From: Actinomycetota bacterium
GTDB lineage: Bacteria > Actinomycetota > Actinomycetes > Mycobacteriales > Mycobacteriaceae
Direction of reading: 5' to 3'
Length of the DNA stretch: 64,000 bases
Assembly: GCA_027728805.1 (NCBI GenBank)
Contig: JAQBTN010000003.1
Span: 2,107 to 66,106, forward strand
Below the pieces are notes generated by a model that did no database searches, was not told where the DNA came from, and saw only the letters and a program-made list of their open reading frames with translations. The position numbers and the translations under genes are program-made. Shown one piece after another: positions 3,923 to 43,556 of the stretch (position 1 is the stretch's first letter; each line of letters begins with the position of its first letter).

Positions 3923-4067
3923 CGTTGCTCCCTGCCGATATCTGCGCTGCTGAAACCTCCAGGACCAGCCTCCCTGCGGCCCGCCCATCATGGCATACCG
4001 CTGAGTTGCCACCGAAAGCTCCGATGCCCGCAGCCAGGCGCTTTGACCGCTCAGTAAGGTCGGCGCA

Positions 4068-5888
4068 GTGGCACACCTGCTGGGCGCCGAGGCGCTGCAC
4101 CTCCAGTATCCGACGCAGGTTGTCTTCGATTGCGTCACCGTCGGTGTCAACGACGGCGACCGAATCGGCATCGTCGGCCGCAACGGCGACGGGAAGTCCA
4201 GCCTGATGGGGATGCTCACCGGCCGGATCCGGCCCGATTCCGGCCGGGTCACCCGCCGCGGCGGCCTGCGGGTCGTCGCCCTGGAGCAGGCCGACACGCT
4301 CGATTCCTCCGTCACCGTCGGCACCGCACTGGTCGGTGACCGGCCCGAGCACGAATGGGCCGGCGATCCCCGGGTTCGCGACGTGGTCGCCGGCCTGGTC
4401 GCCGACCTCGACTGGAACGCGCCGGCCGGCACCCTGTCCGGTGGCCAGCGGCGCCGGGTGCAGTTGGCCGCACTGCTGATCGACGAATGGGACGTGATCG
4501 CCCTCGACGAGCCCACCAACCACCTCGACATCGAGGGCATCACCTGGCTGGCCGGCCATCTGCGCCAGCGCTGGTCGCGCAACTCCGGCGGGCTGCTCCT
4601 GGTGACCCACGACCGTTGGTTCCTCGACGAGGTCGCGACCACGACCTGGGAGGTGCACGAGGGTCCCGACGGCGGCGTCGTCGAGCCGTTCGACGGCGGC
4701 TACGCGGCCTATGTGCTGCAGCGGGTCGAGCGCGACCGGATCGCGGCGGCCACCGAGGCGAAACGGCAGAACCTGATGCGCAAGGAACTGGCCTGGCTGC
4801 GTCGTGGCGCCCCGGCCCGCACATCCAAACCCAAGTTCCGCATCGACGCGGCCAACCAGTTGATCGCCGACGTGCCGCCGATACGCAATACCGTCGAACT
4901 GGCGAAAGTGGCGACGACCCGACTGGGCAAGGACGTCATCGATCTGCTGGATGTCTCGGTGTCCTTCGGCGGCAAAACGGTGCTGCGCGATGTCCAGTGG
5001 CAGATCGCCCCGGGCGAGCGGACCGGGATCGTGGGCGCCAACGGTGCGGGAAAGTCCACCCTGCTGGGCCTGATCGCGGGCACGGTCACCCCTGACAGCG
5101 GCCGGGTCAAGCGCGGTAAGACGGTGCGACTGGCGATGCTCGACCAACAGTCCGGCCGATTGACGGAACTCGCCGAGGATCTGGTGCGCGATGTGGTGGG
5201 CCGGCTGCAGGCCAGCTATGTGGTTGACGGGAAGGAGCTCACCCCGACGCAGTTGTTGGAGCGCTTGGGATTTCGTCGCGAGCAATTGTCGGCGCGGGTC
5301 GGCGAGCTCTCCGGCGGCCAACGCCGGCGGCTGCAGTTGATGCTGACCCTGCTCGACGAGCCGAACGTGCTCGTGCTCGACGAGCCCACCAATGACGTGG
5401 ATATCGACATGCTTTCGGCCACCGAGGATCTGCTGGATTCCTGGCCGGGCACTCTGATCGTCGTCTCCCACGACCGCTACCTGTTGGAGCGGGTCACTGA
5501 TCAGCAATACGCGATTCTCAATGGTCATCTGCGCCACCTCCCCGGCGGCATCGACGAGTACCTGCGAATCGCCGCGCACCGGGAGGCCGGCCCGGTCGGC
5601 GCACCACGACGGTCCACCGACCCGGTCAAATCCGGGGTACCGGCCGCGTCCAGCCTCTCCGGGGCGGAATTGCGCACCGTTCACAAGGAGATCTCCGCGC
5701 TGGAACGCGCGCTGTCCAAGATCTCCGATCGGATCAACGCCAAACACGTCGAACTTGCCGAACACGACCAGTCCGACCACGTCGGCATCACCCAGCTCAG
5801 CGGCGAGCTACGGGAACTGGAGGCTGAACTGGCCGGCACCGAAACCAGGTGGCTGGAACTGTCCGAGCTGGTCGAGTCAGACGGCTGA
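4068..5888 (+). CDS. ABC-F family ATP-binding protein (Uup-like; Rv1667c/1668c-like)
   Basis: Two Walker A motifs (GRNGDGKS, GANGAGKS), two LSGGQ signatures, two DEPTN motifs, no TM segments, C-terminal coiled coil. Confidence 0.93.
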   Translation: MAHLLGAEALHLQYPTQVVFDCVTVGVNDGDRIGIVGRNGDGKSSLMGMLTGRIRPDSGRVTRRGGLRVVALEQADTLDSSVTVGTALVGDRPEHEWAGDPRVRDVVAGLVADLDWNAPAGTLSGGQRRRVQLAALLIDEWDVIALDEPTNHLDIEGITWLAGHLRQRWSRNSGGLLLVTHDRWFLDEVATTTWEVHEGPDGGVVEPFDGGYAAYVLQRVERDRIAAATEAKRQNLMRKELAWLRRGAPARTSKPKFRIDAANQLIADVPPIRNTVELAKVATTRLGKDVIDLLDVSVSFGGKTVLRDVQWQIAPGERTGIVGANGAGKSTLLGLIAGTVTPDSGRVKRGKTVRLAMLDQQSGRLTELAEDLVRDVVGRLQASYVVDGKELTPTQLLERLGFRREQLSARVGELSGGQRRRLQLMLTLLDEPNVLVLDEPTNDVDIDMLSATEDLLDSWPGTLIVVSHDRYLLERVTDQQYAILNGHLRHLPGGIDEYLRIAAHREAGPVGAPRRSTDPVKSGVPAASSLSGAELRTVHKEISALERALSKISDRINAKHVELAEHDQSDHVGITQLSGELRELEAELAGTETRWLELSELVESDG

Positions 5889-8585: not shown

Positions 8586-11186
<2,601 letters not shown>

Positions 11187-27261: not shown

Positions 27262-30162
<2,901 letters not shown>

Positions 30163-30168
30163 CCGCCC

Positions 30169-30191
30169 ATGCTATGCGCCCGCCCCGACAG
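30169..30191 (-). promoter_or_regulatory. RecA-NDp (PafBC-type) DNA-damage promoter of uvrA, leaderless
   Basis: CTGTCGGGG-N8-TAGCAT, 6 nt before GTG; fits tTGTCRgtg-N8-TAnnnT. Confidence 0.7.
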
Positions 30192-30207
30192 CAGTAACGT
30201 GGCGTTC

Positions 30208-30885
30208 ATGACAGTCGTCGACGACACTTACACCGGTCATGTGGAGTCCCAGACCGCAGCGCGGCGCACCCTGCCGGGGGTGAGCATCATCAAGATGTCG
30301 GTGGGCCCGATGGATAACAACGCCTACCTGCTGACCTGTGCGAAGACCGGCGAGTCACTTCTGATCGACGCCGCCAACGACCCCGCGCTGCTGGTGGATC
30401 TGGTGGCCGAACAGGCGCCGAAACTGGAGTTGATCGTGACCACCCACCAACATATGGATCACTGGCTGGCGCTGGAGGCGGTCGCGGAATCGACCGGTGC
30501 CCCCACCGCTGCCCACCCACTCGACGCCGACGCGCTGCCGGTCAAGCCTGCCCGGTTGCTGGCCGGCGGCGAGGTGCTCGAGGTCGGGGATCTCACCTTC
30601 GACGTCATCCACCTGCGTGGGCACACCCCCGGTTCGGTGGCGCTGGCATTGCGGCCCGCCGGCGAGCGGACCGCGGTGCAGTTGTTCACCGGGGACTGCC
30701 TGTTCCCCGGCGGTCCGGGGCGGACGACAACGCCGGAGGAGTTCGATTCACTGATGACCGGCCTGGAGACCTGGGTGTTCGACGTGTACGGGGATGACAC
30801 TGTCGTCTATCCGGGACACGGCGATGACACCACCCTCGGCGAGGAGCGGCCCCGACTGGCTGAGTGGCGCGAGCGAGGTTGGTAA
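30208..30885 (+). CDS. MBL-fold metallo-hydrolase, glyoxalase II-like (Rv1637c-like)
   Basis: THQHMDH, GHTPGS, TGDCLFPGG, YPGHG metal motifs; TAACGT -10 seven nt before ATG. Confidence 0.93.
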   Translation: MTVVDDTYTGHVESQTAARRTLPGVSIIKMSVGPMDNNAYLLTCAKTGESLLIDAANDPALLVDLVAEQAPKLELIVTTHQHMDHWLALEAVAESTGAPTAAHPLDADALPVKPARLLAGGEVLEVGDLTFDVIHLRGHTPGSVALALRPAGERTAVQLFTGDCLFPGGPGRTTTPEEFDSLMTGLETWVFDVYGDDTVVYPGHGDDTTLGEERPRLAEWRERGW

Positions 30886-30934
30886 CCGCGCTCAATACAG
30901 CTCCCTGGTCGGCTTCGCTGCCTAGGATTCGGGC

Positions 30935-31975
30935 GTGATCAAGGAATCTCGGGCCGTTGGTATCCACGAGCACGGCGATGCCGACGCCCTCGTGAACGGC
31001 ACGGTCGAGGTGGGAGCGCCGGGCCAGAGCGAGGTGGTGGTACGAACCAGTGCTCTCGGGGTCAATCCGGCGGACATCTACTTCCGGTCAACCCCGTGGG
31101 AGGAAATCGCGCAGTCGTTGCCTAAGCAGATTCCTTCTTCGGGATCGCTGCGAGTCGTGGGGGCCGACTTCGCCGGGGCCATCGAATCCGTCGGCACCGA
31201 AGTCCGTGGCTGGTCGGTCGGCGATGAGGTTTTCGGCTCGGCCTCGGCGATGGCCGCGACTGGGGCATCGAGCGAGTACATCGTCGTCGATGCCCGACTC
31301 CTCGCCCCTCTCCCGAAGGCCCTAAGCCCAGACCGGGCGGTGGCCTGGCCGATGGTTGGAATCACCGCGTGGGAGTCGCTGTTCGATGTCCTAAGGATCA
31401 GAACGGACGGAGCCGACAGCGGGGCTTCCTTGTTGGTCATCGGTGCTACCGGCGGAACCGGTTCGGCGGCAGTCCAACTGGGCAAGACACTGGCTGGCGT
31501 TTCTGTGACCGCAACGGCAGGTTCGGAGTCCGGCAGATCGTGGTGCTTAAGTCTCGGTGCCGACGCAGTCGTGGATCACCGCAGGCCGCTGACAGACCAA
31601 TTGCCGGACAGCACCTTCGACTTCATCGTGTGCTGTTCGTCGGCAGCGACTTACCTTGACACCATGTCGCAACTGATCGCGCCGTTCGGTCACATTTGTG
31701 CGGTCATGGCCGATCTCGATCCGGTGCCTTTCGGCGGTCTGCGCCTGCGCTCGGCCAGCTTCGGGATGGAGTTCATGGGCCTGCGTTCGATGGGGCCGCA
31801 GATAGAGAAGCACGGCGCGATCCTCACCCAGATTTCGCATCTCATCGACGAGGGTCGGCTCGCCGACCTCTCTGCCCAGCGGCTCAGCCCCATCAATGCC
31901 GACACCCTGCGTCGCGCCCACAGACTGGTCGAACAGGGCGGCCAAGGCAAAGTGACGATCTCGCAATGGCTGTAG
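30935..31975 (+). CDS. MDR-family NADPH:quinone oxidoreductase / zinc-type alcohol dehydrogenase-like protein
   Basis: GVNPAD, GADFAG, ITAWESLFD, IGATGGTGS; no Zn-binding Cys/His set; TAGGAT -10 six nt before GTG. Confidence 0.88.
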   Translation: MIKESRAVGIHEHGDADALVNGTVEVGAPGQSEVVVRTSALGVNPADIYFRSTPWEEIAQSLPKQIPSSGSLRVVGADFAGAIESVGTEVRGWSVGDEVFGSASAMAATGASSEYIVVDARLLAPLPKALSPDRAVAWPMVGITAWESLFDVLRIRTDGADSGASLLVIGATGGTGSAAVQLGKTLAGVSVTATAGSESGRSWCLSLGADAVVDHRRPLTDQLPDSTFDFIVCCSSAATYLDTMSQLIAPFGHICAVMADLDPVPFGGLRLRSASFGMEFMGLRSMGPQIEKHGAILTQISHLIDEGRLADLSAQRLSPINADTLRRAHRLVEQGGQGKVTISQWL

Positions 31976-32000
31976 GAACACCGGTCACCAGCGACCCCCG

Positions 32001-32184
32001 GTTCCCGGGCGGCCCTGGGCGGACAACAAATCCGGCGGAGTTCGACTCACTCATGACCGGCTTGGAGACCGAGGTGTTCGGGGTCTACGGCGACGACACC
32101 GTCGCCTACCCGGGTCATGGCGACGACACCACGTTGGGCGAAGAGCGGCCTCGGCTCGCGGAGTGGCGCGAGCGCGGCTGGTGA
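32001..32184 (+). repeat. MBL 3'-end copy 1 (type A, intact frame, 60 codons)
   Basis: FPGGPGRTTNPAEFDSLMTGLETEVFGVYGDDTVAYPGHGDDTTLGEERPRLAEWRERGW, 55/60 aa identical to the active C-terminus. Confidence 0.97.
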
Positions 32185-32939
32185 TCGCCCGACGGGTGTT
32201 CGACGCGCACCTGCACATCATCGACCCCCAGTTCCCGTTACAGGAGAACAACGGCTACCTGCCGCCGAAGTTCACCGTCGATGACTACCTCAACTGCATC
32301 GCGCACCTCGGCATCAAGGGCGGTGCTGTCGTCTCCGGCTCGTTCCAGGGCTTCGACCAAACCTACCTCCAAGCGGCACTGGCTGCGCTGGGGCCGACGT
32401 TCGTCGGAGTCACTCAAATTCCCCACGAGACAGCCGACGCCGAGATTCAACGCCTGGACTCAGTCGGCGTGCGTGCAGTCCGATTCAACGTCCGCCGGGG
32501 CGGCTCCGCCGACCTGGGCCACCTTGATCGCCTCGCCCGCCGTGTCCACGAGATTGCAGGCTGGCACGTCGAGCTTTACATCGACTCCCGCCAACTGCCC
32601 GATCTGCACGCAACCTTGTCGAAGCTACCTGCGGTGGCCATCGACCACCTGGGCTTGAGTTCTGAGGGACTCCCGCACCTCCTTCGCCTCGTCGAGGTAG
32701 GCGCGAGGGTGAAAGCCACCGGGTTCGGACGGATTGACCTAGACCCCGCCGACGCGATGCGTCGCATCCTCGACATCAACCGCCATGCCCTCGTCGTGGG
32801 CACCGATCTTCCTTCAACCCGCGCGCCACGACCGTTCAGCGACGACGACCTCACCTCGCTCGCCGACTTCCTTGACCCTCGGGAATTGGAGGACACACTC
32901 TGGAACAACGCAGCCACGCTCTACCGGCTGGATCAGTGA
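32181..32939 (+). CDS. Amidohydrolase family protein (Amidohydro_2, 2-pyrone-4,6-dicarboxylate lactonase-like)
   Basis: FDAHLH, AVRFN, IDHLG, GTDLPSTRA; GTG overlaps the TGA of copy 1. Confidence 0.88.
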   Translation: MIARRVFDAHLHIIDPQFPLQENNGYLPPKFTVDDYLNCIAHLGIKGGAVVSGSFQGFDQTYLQAALAALGPTFVGVTQIPHETADAEIQRLDSVGVRAVRFNVRRGGSADLGHLDRLARRVHEIAGWHVELYIDSRQLPDLHATLSKLPAVAIDHLGLSSEGLPHLLRLVEVGARVKATGFGRIDLDPADAMRRILDINRHALVVGTDLPSTRAPRPFSDDDLTSLADFLDPRELEDTLWNNAATLYRLDQ

Positions 32940-32952
32940 CTAGCGATTCCCG

Positions 32953-33136
32953 GTTCCCCGGCGGCGTCGGAAAGACCTGGGAGGAAGGCGGTTTCGAGCA
33001 ACTGCTGGGCGACGTGTCCAGCCGGCTGTTCGATGCCTACGGTGATGACACCGTCGTCTACCCGGGCCACGGCGACGACACCACCCTGGGCGCGGAGCGT
33101 CCACACCTGGCGCAGTGGCGCGAGCGCGGCTGGTAG
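32953..33136 (+). repeat. MBL 3'-end copy 2 (type B, intact frame; ORF 32936-33136)
   Basis: FPGGVGKTWEEGGFEQLLGDVSSRLFDAYGDDTVVYPGHGDDTTLGAERPHLAQWRERGW. Confidence 0.97.
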
Positions 33137-33217
33137 CAACCCGTCAGCGGCGCGAGCTTGCGGCGGTCTGAGCCAGCCCCTCGACGAATAAAGAGAGACT
33201 CACCGGCGTCAGTCCGA

Positions 33218-33505
33218 TCACCCGATAGGTGGTCCCGCGGGAATAACCAGACCGCCCCCCGCCGTGACTACGGGGCCACCGTCGAGCGCCGGAGCGACGG
33301 CAATTTGGGGTGGCCCGCCGTCGGCTGGCACTACGACGTCACCGGGCTGGTAGCCGCCGTCACCAGAGTTCATCATGCAATCAAGAGAGGTCGGGTCAAA
33401 CATGCAGTCGTCGGCAAGGCTGGTCGGTGCTAGTGCAACTCCGACCAATGGCAGTGCGGCAAGCGTGAGACCGGCGGCCACACGGCGGTAACGGGAGGTA
33501 TTCAT
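33218..33505 (-). CDS. Small secreted hypothetical protein, 95 aa
   Basis: Signal peptide ending SLA-DD, two Cys, Gly/Pro-rich; TATCAT -10 six nt before ATG. Confidence 0.75.
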   Translation of the reverse strand: MNTSRYRRVAAGLTLAALPLVGVALAPTSLADDCMFDPTSLDCMMNSGDGGYQPGDVVVPADGGPPQIAVAPALDGGPVVTAGGGLVIPAGPPIG

Positions 33506-33620
33506 ATTCAGATGATAGGGGCTGTGACCTGCTCGGGAGCGGGGTTCGCAGATGACGCAACATGGTCGAGTCGAAGTCGTCGGCCGTGAAACACGCTGTG
33601 GTGGAGGTGGTGCCGCTGGC

Positions 33621-35051
33621 CTAAACGATCAGTTCGAAGTCAGGCAGGCTGAAGGTCTTGTCGAAGAACGGTTGCAAAGGCGCATAGAGGCGGAAGTAGA
33701 CGAACCAGCCGTCATCGCCGGTGGTTTTCATGTAGTTCTTCTCGAAACCCTCAGGCGCCTTGGCGCCGACATAGAGATCGACGCTGCCGTCGGGGTTCTT
33801 GACGAGATCCGGTAGGCGGCTGTCCAGGTTTGCGCTGCGGATGTCGGTGCCGCCGTTGTCGTAGGGGCGGCGGGTGTTCTCGCTGTAGAGGGTCAGCGCC
33901 CAGAACTGGCCCACCGGAACGTCTTTGGGGACCTGGAGCCGGTAGGTCTTGTCGGCACGCAGCAGATTGCCCTTGTTGTCGCGTTTGGTGGTCATGTACA
34001 CCTGTCCCGCGCCGACCGTCGGGTTGACCATGCCTGTGCTGGAGCCCACCGCCTCGTAGAACCAGGTGACCCGCTCGTCGAGTTCGAGGCGGGTGTCGGT
34101 CTCCTGCTCGAGGGAGAAATCGAAGCTCTTGTACCAGGACGTGCCGGGCCAGTACGGCTCGGCGAATCGGGGATTGACCTGGAGGTTGCGCGCCATCAAC
34201 TCGCCCATCGCCGCTCCCTTGAGCAGGATGCTTCGTTGGCGCGCGTCGGGGTCGAATGTCTTGCCCTTGTCGATACCCAGCGGCAGCAGCATCGCCATCC
34301 AGGTCTTGTCCACCGGCCGAACCGGCTCGGTATTTACGACAGCGGCCAGCGTGCGCCAGTAGTCAAGGCCGCGCGGTGCGGTTGCGCTCCACTCGACGTC
34401 TTTGTCCTCGATGAACCGCGAGGTCGCCAGCGGCTGGCCGACCCGGCCCATTTTCATCGTCAACTTGAACGAGTCGTAGTAGGACGGGTCCTTGTCGAGG
34501 ATGCGCAGCAGCACGCCGATGTTGTTCGTCGCGCTCTGGCGCACGTAGTAACCGGGCCGATCGAAGGTCGCGGGGTTCTCCTCGGGGCCGACGATGATGT
34601 ACTTGCCGCCCTTGCCCTGATCTGGACCGGTCAGACCGAGATCGGCGACCGGACGTTGCCAGAAGTCCATGACACCGCCAGCGGTCTGCCCGGCTGGGTA
34701 CTCGATCTCCAGTGGCCCGTTCTTGAGGCTGATGAAGTTGAAGATGTAGGGCGTGGTGAGGTTGGCCGTGACGATCCCGCGCTTCTCCTTCAAGGAGCGC
34801 AGCACGACGAAATCGGTCTCCCCGGTGACGCCGTAGGCCTCGGCCTGCCGGTCGCGCCAGGTGGTCACGCTGACCAGCGGAGTGCTCCACAAGTAGCACT
34901 GAGCGGCCCGTTGGTAGTCCATCTCGTCGTAAAGCCGCTTGGCGGCATCGTCGTCGAAATAATTGTCGACCAGCGTGATATCACCGACCGGGGTCGAGAT
35001 GACTTCCTTCCCGTGCAGTGTGGCCTTCTCAAGCGGTATCCCCTGCGTCAT
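33621..35051 (-). CDS. DUF1254/DUF1214 domain-containing protein
   Basis: TANLTTPY, DFWQRP..DLG..GPD.G.GG, FWALTLY, NPDGSVDLY, YFRLYAP; start uncertain (35051 or 35096). Confidence 0.85.
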   Translation of the reverse strand: MTQGIPLEKATLHGKEVISTPVGDITLVDNYFDDDAAKRLYDEMDYQRAAQCYLWSTPLVSVTTWRDRQAEAYGVTGETDFVVLRSLKEKRGIVTANLTTPYIFNFISLKNGPLEIEYPAGQTAGGVMDFWQRPVADLGLTGPDQGKGGKYIIVGPEENPATFDRPGYYVRQSATNNIGVLLRILDKDPSYYDSFKLTMKMGRVGQPLATSRFIEDKDVEWSATAPRGLDYWRTLAAVVNTEPVRPVDKTWMAMLLPLGIDKGKTFDPDARQRSILLKGAAMGELMARNLQVNPRFAEPYWPGTSWYKSFDFSLEQETDTRLELDERVTWFYEAVGSSTGMVNPTVGAGQVYMTTKRDNKGNLLRADKTYRLQVPKDVPVGQFWALTLYSENTRRPYDNGGTDIRSANLDSRLPDLVKNPDGSVDLYVGAKAPEGFEKNYMKTTGDDGWFVYFRLYAPLQPFFDKTFSLPDFELIV

Positions 35052-35161
35052 CGCCACCCTACTTCGGATTGTCTGCTGTTTGCTGGTCGCGTTCATTTCT
35101 ACCGCATTGCCCTGCTTCGGATCGAAGGGAATCCATTTCCCAGGTTGCGAGCTGACTTCGG

Positions 35162-35246
35162 GTTCCCCGGCGTGACTGGGCGGAGAACAACGCCCGATGA
35201 GTTCGATTCGTTGATGACCGGACTGGAGAGTCGGGTGTTCGGGGTC
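35162..35246 (+). repeat. MBL 3'-end copy 3 (type A, truncated after about 28 codons)
   Basis: FPGVTGRRTTPDEFDSLMTGLESRVFGV, then similarity is lost. Confidence 0.9.
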
Positions 35247-35447
35247 TCGGGAGCCTTTGAGGACGACGCTCACTGATCACCCTGGCAGTCGACTGATCAC
35301 CGGGGATCCGGTTCCAGCCTCGCTCCGGTGGTCCATGGACGCAGCCACCAACTCAAGGAAACATGGCTTGTGTCTATTCGGCATTTCAGCGCCGCCCAGA
35401 CTCTGCGTCGACCCAGACACGGAAACTGCGAGTCTTGGGAGAAAACA

Positions 35448-35696
35448 ATGGTCGACCATCGGGAGCGTCTAGGGACTCGCCGTCTGGGCCTGATCGGGCA
35501 GTCGCGCTCCGCAGTCATCGCGATTTCGCTCCGACTGTGGCTCTGGGAACGTGAAACTCGCGCGCTAGCAAAGGGTCTCGCCCTAGCATTCGTCCTGTTG
35601 CTCACCGGAGTGGTGGGGTTCCAGCTTTTGAACATGGTCTACTACGCACCCGGATCAGCCAATTTGACCCCCGACTCGGGATATTCTCCGTTGTAA
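35448..35696 (+). CDS. Small single-TM hypothetical protein, 82 aa
   Basis: GGGAG RBS before ATG; hydrophobic LALAFVLLLTGVVGFQLL segment. Confidence 0.5.
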   Translation: MVDHRERLGTRRLGLIGQSRSAVIAISLRLWLWERETRALAKGLALAFVLLLTGVVGFQLLNMVYYAPGSANLTPDSGYSPL

Positions 35697-35807
35697 GTCT
35701 CTCGAAATTCGCGGCAAAAGGGCCACGCTGTATTTCGCTTCTTTAGCTGATCGCCGGGGCCTCTGAACGGACCATAGTTAGAGAACACTCCCCATCCGGA
35801 ACATCCA

Positions 35808-35885
35808 GTGCCGGGGGCATCGGAAAGACCTGAGAGCCAGTGGGTTTCGAGCAGCTGCTCGGCGGTTTATCCAGCCGGCTGTTCG
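35808..35885 (+). repeat. MBL 3'-end copy 4 (type B, truncated, in-frame TGA replacing TGG)
   Basis: GIGKT*EPVGFEQLLGGLSSRLF vs copy 2 GVGKTWEEGGFEQLLGDVSSRLF. Confidence 0.88.
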
Positions 35886-36011
35886 CATCTGCGGAAGTGG
35901 CGCCGGTGCGGCTGGTGGACCTCGGTGGCACCCCCTATCGGGGTGAGGGACTGTGCCCTGCTTGATGGCGCATTTGAGTCGGCGGCGGACCGTTCGCTGT
36001 TAACGTAAGTG

Positions 36012-36482
36012 ATGCCCATCTCACGGCGGCATGCGCCGATAGTGTTCAGTGCTTTGATCGCCCTCGTCGTCCTGTCAGGTTGTGGCGCGCAGGATGCCAA
36101 ACCAGGGCAGGTATCTTCGCCACAGTCCGCCTCAGCAGCGAGTACGTCAGCCCCCGCGGGGAGTCCGGAGGGGGTCAAGGTTTCCGCTGCCGACCTGCCG
36201 GCAATCGTTGCGAACCGAACTTACCGCGGCAGTTCGGACGGGATGCCGTACTCCGAGTACTACGCGGCTGATGGCTCGTTGCGGGGAATCAGCGATGGGG
36301 AGGCTTATTCCGGCAGTTGGAAAGTTGTCGAGGACAAGCTTTGCTTCACTTACCCCACGGCCGACGCCAGCGAAATCGAGTGCTACGCCGTGTTTAAAAA
36401 GGGCGACTCCCTGACCTGGATCGATTCCAACGGGCGGGTAGTCCAGACCAGTTACGTCGAGGGTAACCCCGACGGCCTCTAG
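36012..36482 (+). CDS. Lipoprotein with DUF995-like C-terminal domain
   Basis: Lipobox LSG-C; YSEYYAADG...YSGSWKVVEDKLCFTY; TAACGT -10 just upstream. Confidence 0.8.
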   Translation: MPISRRHAPIVFSALIALVVLSGCGAQDAKPGQVSSPQSASAASTSAPAGSPEGVKVSAADLPAIVANRTYRGSSDGMPYSEYYAADGSLRGISDGEAYSGSWKVVEDKLCFTYPTADASEIECYAVFKKGDSLTWIDSNGRVVQTSYVEGNPDGL

Positions 36483-36553
36483 GTTTCCGACTCCTGGTCG
36501 CGGCGCAAACGAACAGATTCAGAACATCACGGCGACGGAAGGAAACGGCAGTC

Positions 36554-36973
36554 ATGGCCCAACGTCCCTACACCTCATGGAACGACGCGATCATCGCCGA
36601 GTTCCGGGCAAATGAAGGCAAGGTAGGCGGGCCGTTCGAGGGTGCGACCCTGCTGCTGCTGCACACCACCGGAGCCAAATCGGGTCAGCAGCGGATCAGT
36701 CCGGTGATGGCCTTCGAGTTCGATGACAAGCTGATCGTCGTGGGCTCCTATGCCGGTGCTGACGTTCATCCCGCCTGGCTGCACAACCTTCGCGCGAACC
36801 CGCATGCCCACATCGAGATCGGCGCCGACGCCTACGACGTGCAGGCCCGGGAGATGGAGTCCGACGAACGCGACGCCACCTTCGCCCGCATCGTGGCGCA
36901 GGCACCCGGATTCGCCGGTTACCAGTTGGCCACCGAACGGGTGATCCCCGTCGTCGAACTGCGGCGCCTCTGA
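36554..36973 (+). CDS. Deazaflavin (F420)-dependent nitroreductase family protein (Ddn-like)
   Basis: IIAEFRANEGKVGG, LLHTTGAKSGQQR, HPAWLHNLRANP, RVIPVV. Confidence 0.92.
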   Translation: MAQRPYTSWNDAIIAEFRANEGKVGGPFEGATLLLLHTTGAKSGQQRISPVMAFEFDDKLIVVGSYAGADVHPAWLHNLRANPHAHIEIGADAYDVQAREMESDERDATFARIVAQAPGFAGYQLATERVIPVVELRRL

Positions 36974-36974
36974 G

Positions 36975-37226
36975 TTGCGGTACCCCGGGGAAGGACCGAG
37001 AAGCCAGTCGGCTGCCGTCGCGGCCAAGCCTGTCGAGCAACTGCCCCGGGGGCCTTACCCGGCGTCGGCGGCAACGATCTGGGCGATCGCCGTATTGACC
37101 TTGCTGATCGGGCTGACGCTCGCAGTGCTCGTCCCCGCCGCCCTCTCGTCCGGCGATGCCCCGCGCGAAACTCCCGGCGTGCAAAGCAGTCTCGGCACTG
37201 ACGGCCCCGACGGCGGGAACCGATGA
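36975..37226 (+). CDS. Small membrane protein whose N-terminus overlaps a decayed MBL copy
   Basis: TTG start; one TM helix; TGA overlaps the ATG of the PrsW gene. Confidence 0.45.
   Translation: MRYPGEGPRSQSAAVAAKPVEQLPRGPYPASAATIWAIAVLTLLIGLTLAVLVPAALSSGDAPRETPGVQSSLGTDGPDGGNR
36978..37044 (+). repeat. MBL 3'-end copy 5 (type B, heavily decayed)
   Basis: CGGTACCCCGG core; GGAAGGACCGAGAAGCCAGTCGG vs copy 4 GGAAAGACCTGAGAGCCAGTGGG; TCGAGCAACTGC identical to copy 2. Confidence 0.6.
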
Positions 37227-38257
37227 GCGATCCGGCGCAGTCTCCGTCCTTCACGATTCCGCCTCGGGCCCCGGACCAGTCGGCCACGCCGCGATGGCCG
37301 CTATGGAGTCTGTACGTCGCCGCTGTCCTGAGCGGGTCGGCGATCTTCGTCGCGCGGTTGGCGCCGGCCGTCGCCCAGACCCCGACGGTGACCGCAGTCG
37401 GCGTGCTGGCCTTCGGAGTCTTCGGCGCACTCGTCGCCTGGTTGCTCAGCAGGATCAACTACTTCCGCACCCCGGCGCCGAGGACGGCGGCATTGGCCGC
37501 CCTGTGGGGCGGCGGCGCGGCGATCGGACACGCGTTGCTGGCCAACACTGCGATTCACGATCATTTTGCCGCACAGGGCCGTGTCGGGTCTTGGCCATTG
37601 TTCGCGCCCCTCACTGAGGACCCGGCCAAGGACATCGGCATTGTCATCGTTCTGCTGCTGGCGGGGACCCGACCCCGCAGCGCGCTGGACGGGCTCGTGG
37701 CAGGATCCTTCGTCGGTCTCGGCTTCGAAGTCGTCGAAAGCCTCACCCGGGCGATCAACAACGCGATCTCGCTCCATCCCGAGGGCCAGCGCGACAATCT
37801 CGGGTCACTGGCCACCGATGTGATTCACGAAGTCGTGCGCAACAGCTGGACCGGCCACATCGTGCTGACCGGTATCGCCGGCTTCGGCATCGGATATCTG
37901 CTGACGGCCCGGGATCGCTCGGTAGCGCGTCGCTTAGTGGCGGCCATCGCGTTGATACTCCTGGCCGGCGCCGGGCATCTGCTGTGGAACTCGCATCGCT
38001 TTGGACTTCTCTACGTGCTCGGGCAGTTCGGATTGCTGGCGTTATTACTGTGGTTGATCAGAGTCGGCCGCAGGCTGGAGGCGGCCGTCTATCTGCCCTA
38101 TCTGGCTTACGCACCGCTACCGGCGGATTCAGCGCTGGCGACGTCACGCACCGCAGTGAGGCGACGACGCCGGGCGACAGCGGCCCTGGCGTCGGCGATC
38201 GCCAACGGCGATGCACAGCGTGCACATGAGGCCGCCGACCGTCTGGCTCCGGCCTAG
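37223..38257 (+). CDS. PrsW-family intramembrane protease (variant EDxxK motif)
   Basis: APLTEDPAK, GFEVVES, GHIVLTG, GHLLWN; multi-TM. Confidence 0.85.
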   Translation: MSDPAQSPSFTIPPRAPDQSATPRWPLWSLYVAAVLSGSAIFVARLAPAVAQTPTVTAVGVLAFGVFGALVAWLLSRINYFRTPAPRTAALAALWGGGAAIGHALLANTAIHDHFAAQGRVGSWPLFAPLTEDPAKDIGIVIVLLLAGTRPRSALDGLVAGSFVGLGFEVVESLTRAINNAISLHPEGQRDNLGSLATDVIHEVVRNSWTGHIVLTGIAGFGIGYLLTARDRSVARRLVAAIALILLAGAGHLLWNSHRFGLLYVLGQFGLLALLLWLIRVGRRLEAAVYLPYLAYAPLPADSALATSRTAVRRRRRATAALASAIANGDAQRAHEAADRLAPA

Positions 38258-38271
38258 ACCACCTGAGCTAT

Positions 38272-38293
38272 TATCTGCGTATGAACGCAGATA
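38272..38293. promoter_or_regulatory. Inverted-repeat operator over the kmtR start codon
   Basis: Perfect 9-4-9 repeat TATCTGCGT-ATGA-ACGCAGATA; TATTAT -10 at 38269-38274. Confidence 0.75.
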
Positions 38294-38673
38294 CAGGAGG
38301 ATGCGCCCGCCGGCTGCCGGACGACCAGGTGGACCTGGTGGTCGAGGTGTTCCGAATGCTGGCAGACCCCACCCGCGTCCAGATCCTGTGGGCACTGGTG
38401 CGCCGGGAGATGTCGGTGGGCGACCTGGCCGACCACGTCGGCAAACCCGCCCCCAGCGTGTCCCAGCACCTGGCGAAGCTCCGGATGGCGCGACTGGTCC
38501 GCACCCGCCGCGAGGGCACCACCATCTACTACAGCCTGGACAACGACCACGTCCGACAACTCGTCACCGACGCGGTGTTCAACGCCGAACACGCCGGGCC
38601 CGGAGTGCCGGGCCATCACCGCAATGCCGACGACCTCAGGGTCCTGCATGCCGACACGGCGGCGCCGGCATGA
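38281..38673 (+). CDS. kmtR: ArsR/SmtB metal-sensing repressor, KmtR (Rv0827c)-like
   Basis: LPDDQVDLVVEVFRMLAD, SQHLAKLRMARLV, DAVFNAEHAGPGVPGHH. Confidence 0.88.
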   Translation: MNADTGGCARRLPDDQVDLVVEVFRMLADPTRVQILWALVRREMSVGDLADHVGKPAPSVSQHLAKLRMARLVRTRREGTTIYYSLDNDHVRQLVTDAVFNAEHAGPGVPGHHRNADDLRVLHADTAAPA

Positions 38674-39707
38674 CGCACCAGCCCCACGGCGGCCATACCC
38701 ACGGCCATACCCATGACGCGGGCCATACGCACGACGACGGCCATACGCACGACGACACCGGGCGGTTCGGCCGTTTCGGCGCGGCAATCCGCGAGGTGTT
38801 CGCACCGCACAGCCACGATGCCGCCGACAGCATCGACGGCGCGCTGGAGTCCAGTGCCGCCGGCATCCGTGCGGTGAAGCTGAGTCTGCTGGCATTGCTC
38901 GCCACGGCGGTCGCGCAGCTGGTGATCGTGGCGATCTCCGGCTCGGTGGCACTGCTGGCCGACACCATCCACAACGTCGCCGATGCGCTGACGGCGATTC
39001 CGCTGTGGGTGGCGTTCGCGTTGGGGACCAGACCCGCCACCCGCCGCTACACCTACGGCTTCGGTCGGGCCGAGGACGTTGCCGGACTTTTCGTCGTCGC
39101 GATGATCGCGCTGTCCGCGATCGTCGCCGGGGTGGAGTCGATCCGCAGGTTGGCAAACCCGGTGCCGATCAACCACGTCGGCTGGGTCGCCGCCGCCGGC
39201 CTCGTCGGATTCATCGGAAATGAGCTCGTCGCCGTATACCGCATCCGGGTCGGCCGCCGGATCGGCTCGGCAGCGCTGGTGGCCGACGGAATGCACGCGC
39301 GCACAGACGGATTCACCTCGTTGGCCGTGCTCTTCGGCGCCGGCGGAGTCGCGCTCGGCTTTCCGCTTGCCGACCCGATCATCGGCTTGGTCATCACCGT
39401 CGCGATCCTTGCCGTGCTCCGTTCCGCCGCCCGCGACGTGTTCCGCCGCCTGATGGACGGCGTGGACCCGGCACTGCTGGACAGCGCCGAGGCGGCACTG
39501 GCCGCCGAACCCGGGGTGACCGGGGTCCGCAGCGTCAAAATGCGCTGGATCGGCCACCGTCTGCACGCCGAGGCCGAACTCGACATCGACCCCACCGTCA
39601 CCCTCGTCGATGCACACCGGATCGCCCATGAGGCCGAACACACCCTCACCCACGCGGTGCCGAAACTCTCCACCGCATTGGTGCACGCCTACCCGGCCTC
39701 GCACTGA
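38670..39707 (+). CDS. Cation diffusion facilitator (Rv2025c-like) with His-rich N-terminus
   Basis: GHTHD repeats, ALLADTIHNVAD, ADGMHARTD, VHAYP; ATG overlaps kmtR stop. Confidence 0.92.
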   Translation: MTHQPHGGHTHGHTHDAGHTHDDGHTHDDTGRFGRFGAAIREVFAPHSHDAADSIDGALESSAAGIRAVKLSLLALLATAVAQLVIVAISGSVALLADTIHNVADALTAIPLWVAFALGTRPATRRYTYGFGRAEDVAGLFVVAMIALSAIVAGVESIRRLANPVPINHVGWVAAAGLVGFIGNELVAVYRIRVGRRIGSAALVADGMHARTDGFTSLAVLFGAGGVALGFPLADPIIGLVITVAILAVLRSAARDVFRRLMDGVDPALLDSAEAALAAEPGVTGVRSVKMRWIGHRLHAEAELDIDPTVTLVDAHRIAHEAEHTLTHAVPKLSTALVHAYPASH

Positions 39708-39759: not shown

Positions 39760-39984
39760 ATGGGTTTCGATCCGAAGAACGCAATGAACGCGGCCAAGGA
39801 CATCGCCACCCACGCCGTGGAAAAGGCCAGCGACATCGTTGAGGACGCCGGTCAGATCATCAAGGGCGATATCGCCGGTGGCGTGGGCGCCATCGTCGAG
39901 GACGCCACCGACATCGCCACCCACGCCGTGGGCAAGGCCAAAGAGGCGTTCACCGGCAAGGACGAGGGCGACCGGGAGGTCTGA
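39760..39984 (+). CDS. Rv1893-family small protein
   Basis: MGFDPKNA...AVEKASDIVE...DIATHAV; GAGGAGG RBS; internal DIATHAV repeat. Confidence 0.8.
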   Translation: MGFDPKNAMNAAKDIATHAVEKASDIVEDAGQIIKGDIAGGVGAIVEDATDIATHAVGKAKEAFTGKDEGDREV

Positions 39985-42050
39985 TGGAGCGGCGCACCGC
40001 GAGCCTGCGCGGCGCCGCTGTCGCGCTGGGGTTCGCAGTGTCGTTGGCCACCGCGGGATCGGCGCTGGCAACGACCGGCGAGGAATCCCCGGGGCCCACC
40101 ACAGCGACTCCCCCGGCCGCGGCTGTGCGCGGCCCGCATGCCGCGAACGGCCCCCAGCGGGCCGCGCGCGTACAGCGGCAGTCCCCCGCCCCCGCGCTGC
40201 GGGCCGGCACCGAGAACCGTTCCGCGGCAGCGCGGGTCGCCGGGGACCGCTCCCGCGGTCCGGCCAGCCGGGCCGTCCGCGGAGGAGATGCCGCGGGTCT
40301 CACCGTCCCGGCGGCAGCGACTGCGCTGTCCGGTGCCACGGTCACCCCGGCGAGCAAAGCGCAGACCGTCGACCCCATCACCGCGCTGCTCAACAACACC
40401 TCACCCGAGGTGCGGCCGACCCAGGGCGGACAGACTCCCGGCGGGGTCGTTACCGGAACCCTCGGGGTGACCGACCCGGACAGCGTTCCCGTTGGCGTCG
40501 CCGTCGCCCGCGGCCCCGCGTATGGCACGGTCACCGTCGCCGCCGGCCGGTACACCTACACCGCAGATCCGGCTCATCCGCAGGCACACAGTGGCTTCAT
40601 CGACTCCTTCGCGGTGACCGTCAGCGACGCCGACAGCGGATTCCACATCCACGGACTGAGCGGTCTGCTCAACATGCTGACCTTCGGACTGCTGGGCGAA
40701 AGCGGCCATCGCAGCACCGCGAACATCACGGTGAACGTCGCCGCGTTCAACAACGCGCCGACCGGCACCGTGCGCACGGACCCGGCCATCCCGCTCACCG
40801 GGGTGGTCACCGGTCAGGTCCTGGGCCGCGACCCCAACGGCGACACGTTGTCCTACAGCGGATCGGCGATCACCCCCAGGGGTTCGGTGATCGTCGGCCC
40901 CACCGGCGACTTCACCTACACACCTACCGCCGAGGCGCTGACCGCCGCCGCCGCACCGACCGCCACAGCCGCGGACCGCCGGGACGAGTTCACCGTCACA
41001 CTGGCCGACGGATACGGCGCCGTGGTTGCCGTAGCCGTAGCGGTTTCGCTCGGTCAGGCCGCCGCGGCGCCGCAGCTGTCCACCTTCTGCGGCTGCACCC
41101 TGATGCCGGCCGACACCGTCTTCCACGCCGACGTCAGCGCCCTGCCGATTCTGGAGAAGTCCGCCACCTGGACGAGCCTGCTGGGCGGCACCCTGCACAC
41201 CAGCTGGGGCCGCACGCCCTGGCAGGGCAGCTCCGGCGGGATGCCGGTCAACGTGGTCGGCCCGGACCACCCCACCGAGACGGTGATCTTCAACCGCGGT
41301 TACACCACCAGCGGGCCGAGCATCGACGCCCGGCCCTACGCCATCCCGGACCGGCCGCTGGTCGAGGGCATGCCCGACGTCCCGGCCTGGGACCGCCACC
41401 TGTTGGTATTCCAGGAGGGCACCTGCATCTCCCAGGAGCTCTACAACGTGGCCAACGGAGTAGAGCTGCCGGCGGCCGGCATCCAGGATGCGCTGGGCAA
41501 CGCCGCCTACGCCGCACTCTGGGGTTCCTCCTGGATCGCCGAGGCTGGTGTACACGTCGACATGAACTCCGGGCTGTACCCGGAACAGGGCTGGGCCAAC
41601 GCATCCCGGCTGCCATACCTGCCGCTGATCCTGCGGCCGGACGACCTCGAGCGCGGCGCGATCGACCACATGCTGGGAATGTCGATCGCCAAAGACCGCG
41701 GCACCGGCTACACCTGGCCGGCCCGGTTCGGCGACGGCACCGGCACCAACCCCGACGGCGTCCCGATGGGCACGGTTCTGCGGCTGAACGCCGACTTCGA
41801 TCTCACCGGCTACCAGCCAGGTACCCAGGTGGTGCTGCGGGCCCTGCAGCAGCACGGCGCGGTGGTCTACGACTCGTTCGCCGCCGGCCGCGACGGTGCC
41901 GGATTGCTGGTGATGAGCAACGGCTGGAACGGCACTGCGCACTTCGCCGTCCAGGACGAACTGAACACCATCCCGCTCAGTGCCTTCGAGGCCGTCGACG
42001 TCCTGAGCCTGGCCGCCGATCCAACGCTCGGCTGGATGATCCGAACCTGA
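39984..42050 (+). CDS. Secreted protein with two Ig-like (Big/VCBS-type) repeats and an uncharacterised C-terminal domain
   Basis: Signal peptide; two repeats of GTVTV..GxYTYT / DxFxVT.xDG; C-terminal WDRHLLV...ELYN...PMG...L domain. Confidence 0.8.
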   Translation: MERRTASLRGAAVALGFAVSLATAGSALATTGEESPGPTTATPPAAAVRGPHAANGPQRAARVQRQSPAPALRAGTENRSAAARVAGDRSRGPASRAVRGGDAAGLTVPAAATALSGATVTPASKAQTVDPITALLNNTSPEVRPTQGGQTPGGVVTGTLGVTDPDSVPVGVAVARGPAYGTVTVAAGRYTYTADPAHPQAHSGFIDSFAVTVSDADSGFHIHGLSGLLNMLTFGLLGESGHRSTANITVNVAAFNNAPTGTVRTDPAIPLTGVVTGQVLGRDPNGDTLSYSGSAITPRGSVIVGPTGDFTYTPTAEALTAAAAPTATAADRRDEFTVTLADGYGAVVAVAVAVSLGQAAAAPQLSTFCGCTLMPADTVFHADVSALPILEKSATWTSLLGGTLHTSWGRTPWQGSSGGMPVNVVGPDHPTETVIFNRGYTTSGPSIDARPYAIPDRPLVEGMPDVPAWDRHLLVFQEGTCISQELYNVANGVELPAAGIQDALGNAAYAALWGSSWIAEAGVHVDMNSGLYPEQGWANASRLPYLPLILRPDDLERGAIDHMLGMSIAKDRGTGYTWPARFGDGTGTNPDGVPMGTVLRLNADFDLTGYQPGTQVVLRALQQHGAVVYDSFAAGRDGAGLLVMSNGWNGTAHFAVQDELNTIPLSAFEAVDVLSLAADPTLGWMIRT

Positions 42051-42051
42051 C

Positions 42052-43089
42052 TCAGATCCAGTTGCGCTTCTTGAACCCGATGTACAACGCCACCGCGGCG
42101 AGCACCGAAGCGACCGCGCTGGTCCACACGCCCCAGTCGTTGCCGTATCCGGGGTAGGGGACGTTCTGCCCGTACCAGCCGGTGACCAGGGTGGGCACGG
42201 CGATGATGGCCGCCCAGCCGGTCAGCTTCTTCATGATGGTGTTCAGTCGGGCGTCCTGAAGCGAGAGGTTGGTCTCGAACACCGTGGTGACCATGTCCCG
42301 CAACGACTCCGTCCATTCGGCGGCGCGGATGACATGGTCGTACAGATCCGAATACCAGCCTTCCAATTCGGCGGAATCGCCGCCGAGAGCGCTGCGCCGC
42401 ATGATGGTGTTCACCACCTCGCGCATCGGTAGCACGATGCGGCGCAGTTCGACGAGTTCCTTGCGCAGCCGGTAGGTGTCGCGTTGCAGTTGCCTGGTCT
42501 GCGACCGGTCGTCGAACAATCCGTCCTCCAACGACTCGATGGCGTCATCGAGTTGCTGGATGGTGTCGAACTGGCCGTCCACCACCACATCGAGAATCCC
42601 GTGCAGCAGCGCTGGGCTACCTTTGCGCAGCAGATCGGTGTTGTCGTCCCAACGCCGGACCACATCGTCGATATCGAAAACCGGACGCGCCGGGTCACTT
42701 TCGTGCCGCACGGTCACCACAGCCGCGGGCAGCACGAAGATCGACACCCGGGCGGTCAGCAGCCGTGACTCGATCGCGCCGGGAATCTGCACCCCCAGTG
42801 CGGTCGCATAGACGGTGAGAAAGGTGTGGGTGGCGTAGCGGGTGGCCTTCGTACGCTCGGTGTGCTCGACGACGTCCTCAACAGCGCGGGGATCGAGGCC
42901 GAGTTCGTCGGCCAACTCGCCGAGAAGTCCGTGATCGGGGTTGCACAGATCCACCCACACCAGCGCGCCGTCCTGGTGGATATGTTCGGAGAGTTCTTCG
43001 AGCGCAAAGTTCTCGCTCTTCAAAACACCGTCAACCCACTGCCGGGTACGGACGGCCGTGCCGTCCGATCGGGGACCGTTGGTCGTCAC
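42052..43089 (-). CDS. CorA-family divalent cation transporter
   Basis: WVDL, LYDHVIR, LNTIMKKLT, PTLVTGWYGQN. Confidence 0.9.
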   Translation of the reverse strand: MTTNGPRSDGTAVRTRQWVDGVLKSENFALEELSEHIHQDGALVWVDLCNPDHGLLGELADELGLDPRAVEDVVEHTERTKATRYATHTFLTVYATALGVQIPGAIESRLLTARVSIFVLPAAVVTVRHESDPARPVFDIDDVVRRWDDNTDLLRKGSPALLHGILDVVVDGQFDTIQQLDDAIESLEDGLFDDRSQTRQLQRDTYRLRKELVELRRIVLPMREVVNTIMRRSALGGDSAELEGWYSDLYDHVIRAAEWTESLRDMVTTVFETNLSLQDARLNTIMKKLTGWAAIIAVPTLVTGWYGQNVPYPGYGNDWGVWTSAVASVLAAVALYIGFKKRNWI

Positions 43090-43109
43090 TTCGGCGCGAC
43101 CGAGGTGCC

Positions 43110-43556
43110 CTAGTTCGTGGTGTGGACGATCAGCACGTCGGTCTTGGACTTGCGCGCCACGTTCGCGGGCACCGACCCGAGGAGGCGGCCGGCGATCGTG
43201 TTGAGCCCGACATTGCCAACCACCAGCAGATCGGCGCCGACCTCGTTGGCCAGGTCGACCAGCGCCTCGACGGGCGCTCCCTCGATGGCGCGCTCCTCGA
43301 CGTTGGCGGCCCCGGCGGCCTTTGCACGCTCCCCTGCATCGCGCAGGATCTCGTAGATCGGCGCGTTGCCGGTCACCTTGTATCCCTCGTCTTTGAGCAT
43401 GTCCGCGGCGCGGGTGTCCTCCGCGCCGGGCAGGAAGGCGGTCGCCACGATGACCTTCGCATCGGGTCCGGATGCCAGTTCGCCGGCCCGGACCACCGCG
43501 CGAAGCGAGGATTCCGAGCCGTCCGTACCGACGACCACGGTCTTGTAACCGCTCAT
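43110..43556 (-). CDS. Universal stress protein (TB15.3/Rv1636-like)
   Basis: VVGTDGSESS, VVGNVG...LLGSV. Confidence 0.95.
   Translation of the reverse strand: MSGYKTVVVGTDGSESSLRAVVRAGELASGPDAKVIVATAFLPGAEDTRAADMLKDEGYKVTGNAPIYEILRDAGERAKAAGAANVEERAIEGAPVEALVDLANEVGADLLVVGNVGLNTIAGRLLGSVPANVARKSKTDVLIVHTTN

Follow-up and report, generated by a model that had tools for sequence, protein, structure and literature searches.

Phage 21 and e14 insert in the 3' part of the icd gene of Escherichia coli, supply a substitute end for the gene, and leave the displaced end behind as a pseudogene at the distal junction. In staphylococci, staphylococcal cassette chromosome (SCC) elements, namely, SCCmec and the composite and pseudo-SCC forms, use large serine recombinases and occupy the 3' end of another conserved gene, rlmH (orfX), and in Streptococcus thermophilus, integrative and conjugative elements (ICEs) and cis-mobilizable elements (CIMEs) have integrated serially at the 3' end of fda. 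Here we analyze a stretch of 64,000 nucleotides (nt), referred to as the window (GenBank assembly GCA_027728805.1, contig JAQBTN010000003.1, positions 2,107 to 66,106), which belongs to a 96%-complete Mycobacterium assembly (4.03 Mb, 273 contigs). In this window, the gene for a metallo-β-lactamase (MBL)-fold hydrolase is followed by copies of its own 3' end (referred to as tails) and by accessory genes between them. It is likely that the array consists of scars of site-specific integration at the end of the MBL gene, accreted as cassettes that lack a recombinase. Such a mechanism, in which elements integrate serially at one site and replace the 3' end of a gene, would be of a familiar type; the site and the small, block-exchanged cassettes are new, and a literature search found no description of an attachment site in the MBL gene.

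Both phage 21/e14 and the window involve replacement of the 3' end of a protein-coding gene that is thereby kept intact, but phage 21 and e14 are single elements with a tyrosine integrase, and we know of no array of recombinase-less units at icd. SCC islands share with the window tandem arrays in which repeats of the target flank the units and some units lack a recombinase; however, the SCC repeat comprises about 15 to 18 bp of the gene, compared to about 185 bp in the window, SCC units are many kilobases long, and SCC islands hold ccr recombinase genes, whereas no ccr-like gene was found in the window island. CIMEs are likewise recombinase-less, att-bounded units at one gene end and can be moved by the integrase of a relative, although ICEs and CIMEs rely on a tyrosine integrase and short repeats and are larger. 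Integron arrays resemble the window in that small, mostly one-gene, recombinase-less units insert beside a fixed platform, in that the units share a recombination site at the end of the cargo, and in that the first cassette can be read from the platform transcript (in the window, through GTGA overlaps). Unlike in integrons, the site in the window is a fragment of a host gene end of about 200 nt and presumably not an attC hairpin, and the cargo lies on both strands. No IntI gene was found beside the insertion site, where the neighbors are uvrA and the MBL gene, and there was no Phage_integrase match in the region. The first-pass annotation of this DNA had likened the mode of entry to that of CRISPR arrays and integrons; machinery of neither kind is present.

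The MBL gene end, its displaced copies, and the elements that carry it

The locus was gathered in relatives from 80 genome contigs, 80 metagenome contigs, and whole-genome searches. The MBL gene (positions 30124 to 30885, plus strand; Pfam Lactamase_B, E = 4e-14) adjoins uvrA (an open reading frame [ORF] at 27262 to 30162, minus strand), the conserved left flank, in 41 of 41 relatives, and uvrA is 84 to 98% identical at the amino acid (aa) level across all related loci. Relatives align only from residues 13 to 36 on, and translation of the MBL gene probably starts at the ATG at 30202. Judged by position, the gene appears to be the Rv1637c homologue. In most mycobacteria a universal stress protein gene lies 3' of the MBL gene, either directly or past a variable gap of a few kilobases; in the window about 12 kb separates the two. 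In one relative (L016, G021:C1:3147928-3148646), a frameshift near residue 169 splits the MBL gene.

Every tail, in all of the genomes, runs from the core TTCCCSGGCGG (codons FPGG), which lies about 61 codons before the gene end, to the stop codon. Type B tails (GGVGKTW...F..LL) are the working end of the gene in roughly four-fifths of the Mycobacterium species sampled, the majority genus-wide, and type A tails (GGPGRTT.P.EF.SLM) appear sporadically and are the working end in about one-fifth. The window was scanned with an nhmmer profile made from tails 0 to 2 (the last 200 nt of the gene) and later with a second, richer profile. The working end in the window, tail 0 (30703 to 30885, plus strand; translation GGPGRTTTPEEFDSLM; nhmmer match 30679 to 30888, E = 5e-65), is of type A. 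Its core, TTCCCCGGCGG (30703 to 30713), is preceded by the gene-side arm TTCACCGGGGACTGCCTG (30685 to 30702), and together these form the gene-proximal junction (30685 to 30713, plus strand), the presumed entry site.

Beyond the gene, the first-pass annotation had described two full-length, open copies, a third of about 28 codons, a fourth of about 25 codons with TGG changed to TGA, and a patchy fifth with an insertion of about 20 bp, and this description was largely borne out. Tail 1 (type A; nhmmer match 31977 to 32187, E = 6e-63; 31983 to 32184 with its junction, left arm GGTCACCAGCGACCCCCGG, core 32002 to 32012) and tail 2 (type B; nhmmer match 32929 to 33139, E = 7e-61; 32936 to 33136 with its junction, left arm GTGACTAGCGATTCCCGG, core 32954 to 32964) are both full-length and open on the plus strand, and tail 2 is 87% identical to the native tail of a locus without an extra tail (L013, genome G002). 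Tail 3 (type A, plus strand, 35163 to 35250; nhmmer match 35154 to 35250, E = 2e-14) is 3' truncated, with about 30 codons followed by unrelated sequence. Tail 4 (type B, plus strand, 35808 to 35919; nhmmer match 35799 to 35885, E = 2e-9) has 25 codons, with TGA at 35831 to 35833 where other tails have TGG; since the richer profile detected its last 12 codons at 35884 to 35919, tail 4 carries an internal deletion joining about codon 25 to those final codons. For the tail 5 candidate (type B-like, plus strand, 36985 to 37071, insertion of about 19 nt), the earlier description was accurate, but neither nhmmer profile matched it. Ordinary local alignment gave a P value of about 0.03 (3% of random windows score as high), and alignment allowing an insertion of 19 to 20 nt beat 3,000 of 3,000 and 2,999 of 3,000 random genome windows. 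The candidate passes only when long gaps are cheap; it is probably real, but weak. By nhmmer, the 4.03-Mb assembly holds no tail copies elsewhere. Extra tails were present in 28 of the 167 loci scanned, yielding 38 inter-tail units with a median gap of 883 bp.

A translated tail search of the phage comparison set (50,697 phage records) returned twelve cluster K5 (Kratiovirus) mycobacteriophage records, at 71 to 74% identity. These phages, among them Larva, Kratio, and Collard, have a 62-codon tail annotated as gp38, "hydrolase." In Larva, 12 nt separate the beginning of gp38 from the gp39 start codon; gp39 lies on the opposite strand and encodes a large serine integrase with Resolvase and Recombinase domains. 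Three viral contigs (L107, L109, and L110) have a tail and integrase laid out as in Larva, with integrases 38 to 53% identical to gp39, so that free elements carry the 3' end of the gene right beside an integrase gene. K5 gene 38 is a fragment of the 3' end of the host MBL gene, placed beside attP and a serine integrase gene, and not a gene for an independent enzyme. In Larva (L103, NC_023724.1) it spans 3989 to 4189, and in K5 phages it is annotated as "hydrolase" or hypothetical. Matches of the tail to plasmids were full-length MBL genes and were uninformative.

The genus-level survey of integrases and tails covered 301 Mycobacterium species. An integrase lay beside a displaced tail in nine of these, and in eight of the nine the displaced tail was 9.4 to 11.7 kb away from the gene. 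With all eight resident elements (L141 to L148; genomes G283, G097, G166, G214, G146, G266, G252, and G210), the working tail is of type A and the tail beyond the integrase is of type B. Type A is therefore the element-borne substitute end and type B the native end, and the tail copies are attachment-site scars. The resident elements have little DNA in common besides the integrase; those examined have genes for a major head protein, a large terminase, an HNH protein, and a WhiB-like protein in addition to the large serine integrase, and they may be phage satellites. In size and gene set they resemble phiRv1 of Mycobacterium tuberculosis, which is also about 10 kb long and encodes a large serine integrase, a capsid protein, and a terminase; phiRv1 differs in that it targets the REP13E12 repeat and carries no substitute gene end. 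Three resident elements carry a tyrosine recombinase gene just 3' of the tail, and one carries a CAP12/Pycsar-type TIR-domain gene.

A decayed intermediate was found in L025, where a type A tail, a module for a 95-aa secreted protein (sec95), an integrase remnant, and a type B tail follow in that order. In L157 the sec95 module is present and the integrase remnant is entirely gone. An apparent HsdM motif in L025, which lies on the strand opposite the integrase remnant and overlaps this remnant, was regarded as spurious.

Probable entry of units next to the gene and their exchange

The window holds five or six units in series, each made up of a core, a tail, one or two accessory genes, and a left arm. 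A left-arm consensus, GGTCACCGGCGACCCCCGG, is common to displaced tails behind unrelated cargo; the arm is about 19 nt long, and four fixed differences separate it from the gene's own arm, GTTCACCGGCGACTGCCTG. The gene-side arm sequence to the left of the core was matched at the gene-proximal junction only. This supports the first-pass proposal that units enter at the gene-proximal site and push older ones outward, and further support came from the eight genomes with a resident element, where type A is at the gene and the native type B is displaced. In addition, the outermost classifiable tail was of type B in four of five multi-tail arrays and in 12 of 14 two-tail arrays, and shared units sit deeper in longer arrays. 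Thus, the amidohydrolase unit is first in L229 and second in the window, the sec95 unit is first in L025 and third in the window, and a SnoaL-like unit is first in L026 and L153 and third in L028. Displaced type A tails must once have been working gene ends. Overall, the evidence favors the entry of new material next to the gene.

The first cargo gene of the window encodes a zinc-type alcohol dehydrogenase/quinone oxidoreductase (ADH; 30935 to 31975, plus strand; Pfam ADH_N and ADH_zinc_N), and the second encodes a hydrolase of the Amidohydro_2 family (32181 to 32939, plus strand; Pfam E = 2e-22). The closest homologue of the amidohydrolase (94% aa identity) was found in contigs L229 to L232, directly 3' of the MBL gene. 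The unit from core to next junction (32002 to 32953) is 94.0% identical to L229 at the nucleotide level over 952 nt; in the flanks, the corresponding values are 85.5% (uvrA) and 78.6% (N-terminal part of the MBL gene), and the change in identity occurs close to the core. To the left of the core, L229 resembles the gene of the window and not its junction 1; tail 1 of the window is therefore the working gene end in L229. Unlike L229, the window has the ADH unit ahead of the amidohydrolase unit. In L027, the ADH unit is 91% identical to that of the window at the nucleotide level, equal to the uvrA background, and the block is collinear; past the left arm and core there is a type B tail like tail 2 of the window, with no amidohydrolase unit. 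The window thus has both units, L027 has only the ADH unit, and L229 has only the amidohydrolase unit, a pattern of discrete cassettes gained or lost singly, as in integrons. In L236, ADH, the left arm, the final 7 nt of a tail, and the amidohydrolase follow one another, the intervening tail having been deleted. The sec95 module (33202 to 33555), which is 95 to 96% identical to those of L025, L152, and L157 and adjoins the serine integrase remnant in L025 and L152, is 95% identical between the window and L025, against 86 to 90% for uvrA. These comparisons show that units come and go, and pass from one lineage to another, as discrete blocks bounded by tail junctions.

L236 (JAHBAP020000276.1) and L024 (JAHBAP020000086.1) are two contigs of one assembly. 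L024 has an MBL gene with four extra tails, and L236 has the ADH-amidohydrolase pair 3.4 kb upstream of an Rv1893-like gene; L236 could represent the distal portion of the L024 island. The GTG start of the amidohydrolase gene overlaps the stop of tail 1 (GTGA, 32181 to 32184), as it does in L229 (3111 to 3114), and its stop codon overlaps a GTG at the head of the next tail (32936 to 32939). Since the GTGA overlap is kept where the tail is the working gene end, it suggests possible translational coupling of the first cargo gene to the MBL gene.

The third unit contains the sec95 ORF (33218 to 33505, minus strand) and a gene for a DUF1254/DUF1214 protein (33621 to 35095, minus strand; Pfam). Homologues of the DUF1254 gene in reverse orientation lie after tail 0 in L150 (1250 to 1981) and before a tail in L177 (1 to 142), and the homology of the window gene to both breaks off at one shared point, window position 34527. 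A possible fourth cargo is an 82-aa membrane ORF (35448 to 35696, plus strand), an uncertain gene without a Pfam match. The fifth (36009 to 36973, plus strand) comprises a 157-aa lipoprotein-like ORF (36009 to 36482), to which no family was assigned, and a gene for an F420H2-dependent quinone reductase family protein (36554 to 36973; Pfam F420H2_quin_red, E = 9e-36).

Erosion of displaced tails and the outer genes

The first-pass annotation had read the tails as an age gradient in which copies decay monotonically with distance from the gene. In the window that order holds; by chance it would arise with a probability of 1/60 when five copies, two of them tied, are counted and of 1/12 when the count is limited to the four firm ones. 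As a general clock the gradient fails, and the order is the opposite in four of the five other multi-tail arrays. The scoring covered arrays with at least two displaced tails; L229/L231 and L233, which are also multi-tail, were left out. Distal tails are more complete in L014, L024, L028, and L077, and the claimed polarity was seen only in L162 and the window. Since four arrays have reverse polarity, decay with distance is no general rule, and the age gradient applies locally. Erosion proceeds mostly through deletions, either internal or at the 5' side, that are linked to the loss of elements, and not through steady drift: tails are 5' truncated in L024, L033, L036, and L215, and internal deletions that spare the left arm and the final few bases occur in tail 4 of the window, L229, and L236. 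The dating of units by their identity to relatives was dropped, because identity dates the common ancestor of the copies and not the insertion.

A pan-genome comparison, in which distal cargo was expected to be shared among relatives and proximal cargo to be strain specific, gave a mixed outcome. The outermost genes are indeed the most widely shared, but the innermost cargo, ADH, is also shared with L027; the middle cargo of the window is mostly unique. The first-pass annotation had also suggested that accessory genes out to about 42 kb might be units whose tails had eroded. With both profiles, nhmmer found no credible tail between 37 and 43 kb, the best match being on the minus strand inside corA (42136 to 42207, E = 0.005 in a 14-kb search), probably by chance. 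The suggestion nevertheless holds for the pair of genes for an ArsR-family regulator and a cation diffusion facilitator (CDF) exporter (38281 to 39707, plus strand; Pfam). ArsR-CDF lies directly 3' of a tail in L026, L149, and L158 and of a tail fragment in L229, and on this comparison it is a former unit that has lost its tail in the window. In L149 a truncated tail (9700 to 9905) follows ArsR-CDF and is itself followed by a duplicated fragment of the CDF C terminus (aa 320 to 345), which suggests two successive ArsR-CDF units fused by deletion.

The suggestion fails for the Big_9 (Ig-like) protein, which is present where there are no tails. The window from 39760 to 43556 holds a small Rv1893-like gene (plus strand), the Big_9 gene (plus strand), corA (minus strand), and the universal stress protein gene (minus strand) and is taken as the ancestral right flank. 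Since the Rv1893-like gene, Big_9, and corA are found in L013 and L029 without an extra tail, and in L023 downstream of a single degenerate tail, they are ancestral context and not units. The gene for a PrsW-family protease (37223 to 38257, plus strand; Pfam) is a candidate for either class; in L158, the position between the small gene and corA is occupied by a 60% homologue.

Competing explanations and significance

We favor serial integration at the MBL gene, in which the last 61 codons would be the target of site-specific integrating elements with a crossover at or near the core TTCCCSGGCGG. An element would bring, next to its attachment site, a 3' end of the gene of its own, and because this spare end is supplied, the gene would stay whole and the former end would be pushed downstream. 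New units would enter at the gene-proximal core, the only junction with the gene-side arm, and older units would shift outward. Displaced tails would then be lost by deletion that spares their last bases, which form the start region of the next cargo gene, and tail-to-tail recombination would remove or reshuffle units. The recombinase would act in trans. On this basis the array could even be a working platform for gene capture, with recombinase-less cassettes excised as circles and inserted by a trans-acting recombinase, e.g., that of a passing phage or satellite, and with the first cassette expressed through the host gene transcript and the stop/start overlaps. Such an analogue of the integron built on a phage attachment system is a tentative idea that we rate as less probable than not.

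Several observations weigh against this explanation. No recombinase was found in the window units, either with five integrase queries (E < 0.1, 30 to 44 kb) or among the ORF families, and no cognate recombinase was found in the assembly, which is 96% complete. Its sole large serine recombinase (contig C30, 5508 to 6998; Resolvase, Recombinase, and Zn_ribbon_recom domains) lies on a contig other than that of the window, is 33% identical to gp39, and was rejected as the cognate enzyme; by eye it appears to lie in a REP13E12-like gene, the kind of target used by phiRv1, to which the upstream sequence bears a resemblance. The cargo consists of ordinary metabolism genes, none of them phage-like, and when the whole island was compared with the phage records, only the tails matched. 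The window arm GGTCACCGGCGACCCCCGG is unlike the arm AGAGCCTACGGTA of the K5 phages and the 10-kb elements; therefore, the enzyme of the cassette family need not be a serine recombinase. Serine integrases, to our knowledge, do not normally reuse a hybrid attL as a target. The tail order in the window (A, A, B, A, B, and possibly B) puts native-type tails (2 and 4) inside the array, which simple accretion does not predict, and the three-way pattern of the ADH and amidohydrolase units needs either independent insertion of one unit or precise internal loss, which tail-to-tail homologous recombination could mimic. The window left arm had no matches in IMG/VR, where no viral contig has it, and was present in only 2 of 401 genus genomes; therefore, the cassette family is confined to a small, mostly uncultured clade. 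No integrase-bearing donor with this arm was found in either set.

Each unit might instead have arisen independently by deletion from a complete phage or 10-kb element, never being mobile by itself and being small through strong deletion bias. Complete elements do use the same site, an integrase remnant is retained in L025 and L152 and has been lost entirely in L157, and the 5'-cut displaced tails are what deletion out of an element would leave. Nevertheless, pure decay seems unlikely. The arrays scanned hold only one integrase remnant, phage-like genes were found at one locus only (L063, a resident element), and no cargo ORF is phage-like. Moreover, the cargo genes stop 7 to 30 nt short of the core in three window units, where random deletions would rarely stop; one unit keeps both of its boundaries in different contexts; a cassette is 94% identical between flanks that are 79 to 86% identical; and the left arm is common to unrelated cargo. 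The last observation also bears on the view that a few founding integrations were followed solely by homologous recombination, which imported DNA through uvrA and the 5' part of the MBL gene on one side and any tail on the other, so that order would say little of age. The 3' half of the tail is 80 to 90% identical between types A and B, and divergence is greater in the N-terminal part of the MBL gene than in uvrA. Homologous recombination would also explain type A working tails without a downstream scar (L040 and L101) and the type B tails at internal positions of the window. However, the type switches at the core and not at varied points within the tails, the left arm of unrelated cassettes points to one recombination site, and homologous recombination cannot create the first duplication; as a sufficient explanation, we consider it somewhat doubtful. 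A further possibility is that the gene end was duplicated locally in tandem and the copies then drifted, with neighboring genes caught between them; this fits the copies being direct repeats in one orientation but is most improbable. The two old allelic types match phage-borne and native versions and not each other, the boundaries are identical in unrelated genomes, and the differences between copies are those of once-functional alleles, with tails 1 and 2 still open.

Under serial site-specific integration, mycobacteria have an integration site inside the MBL gene next to uvrA that is used by K5 and other phages and by small capsid-bearing elements. The "hydrolase" gene of the K5 phages is reinterpreted as a host gene fragment that travels with attP, and the element-type ends in about one-fifth of the Mycobacterium species sampled are fossils of past integrations. 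Within one clade of environmental mycobacteria, this site would have become a row of small, recombinase-less cassettes of accessory genes that are swapped between lineages. If the cassettes move in trans, they would represent an actinobacterial route of gene capture that is missed by standard mobile-element finders.

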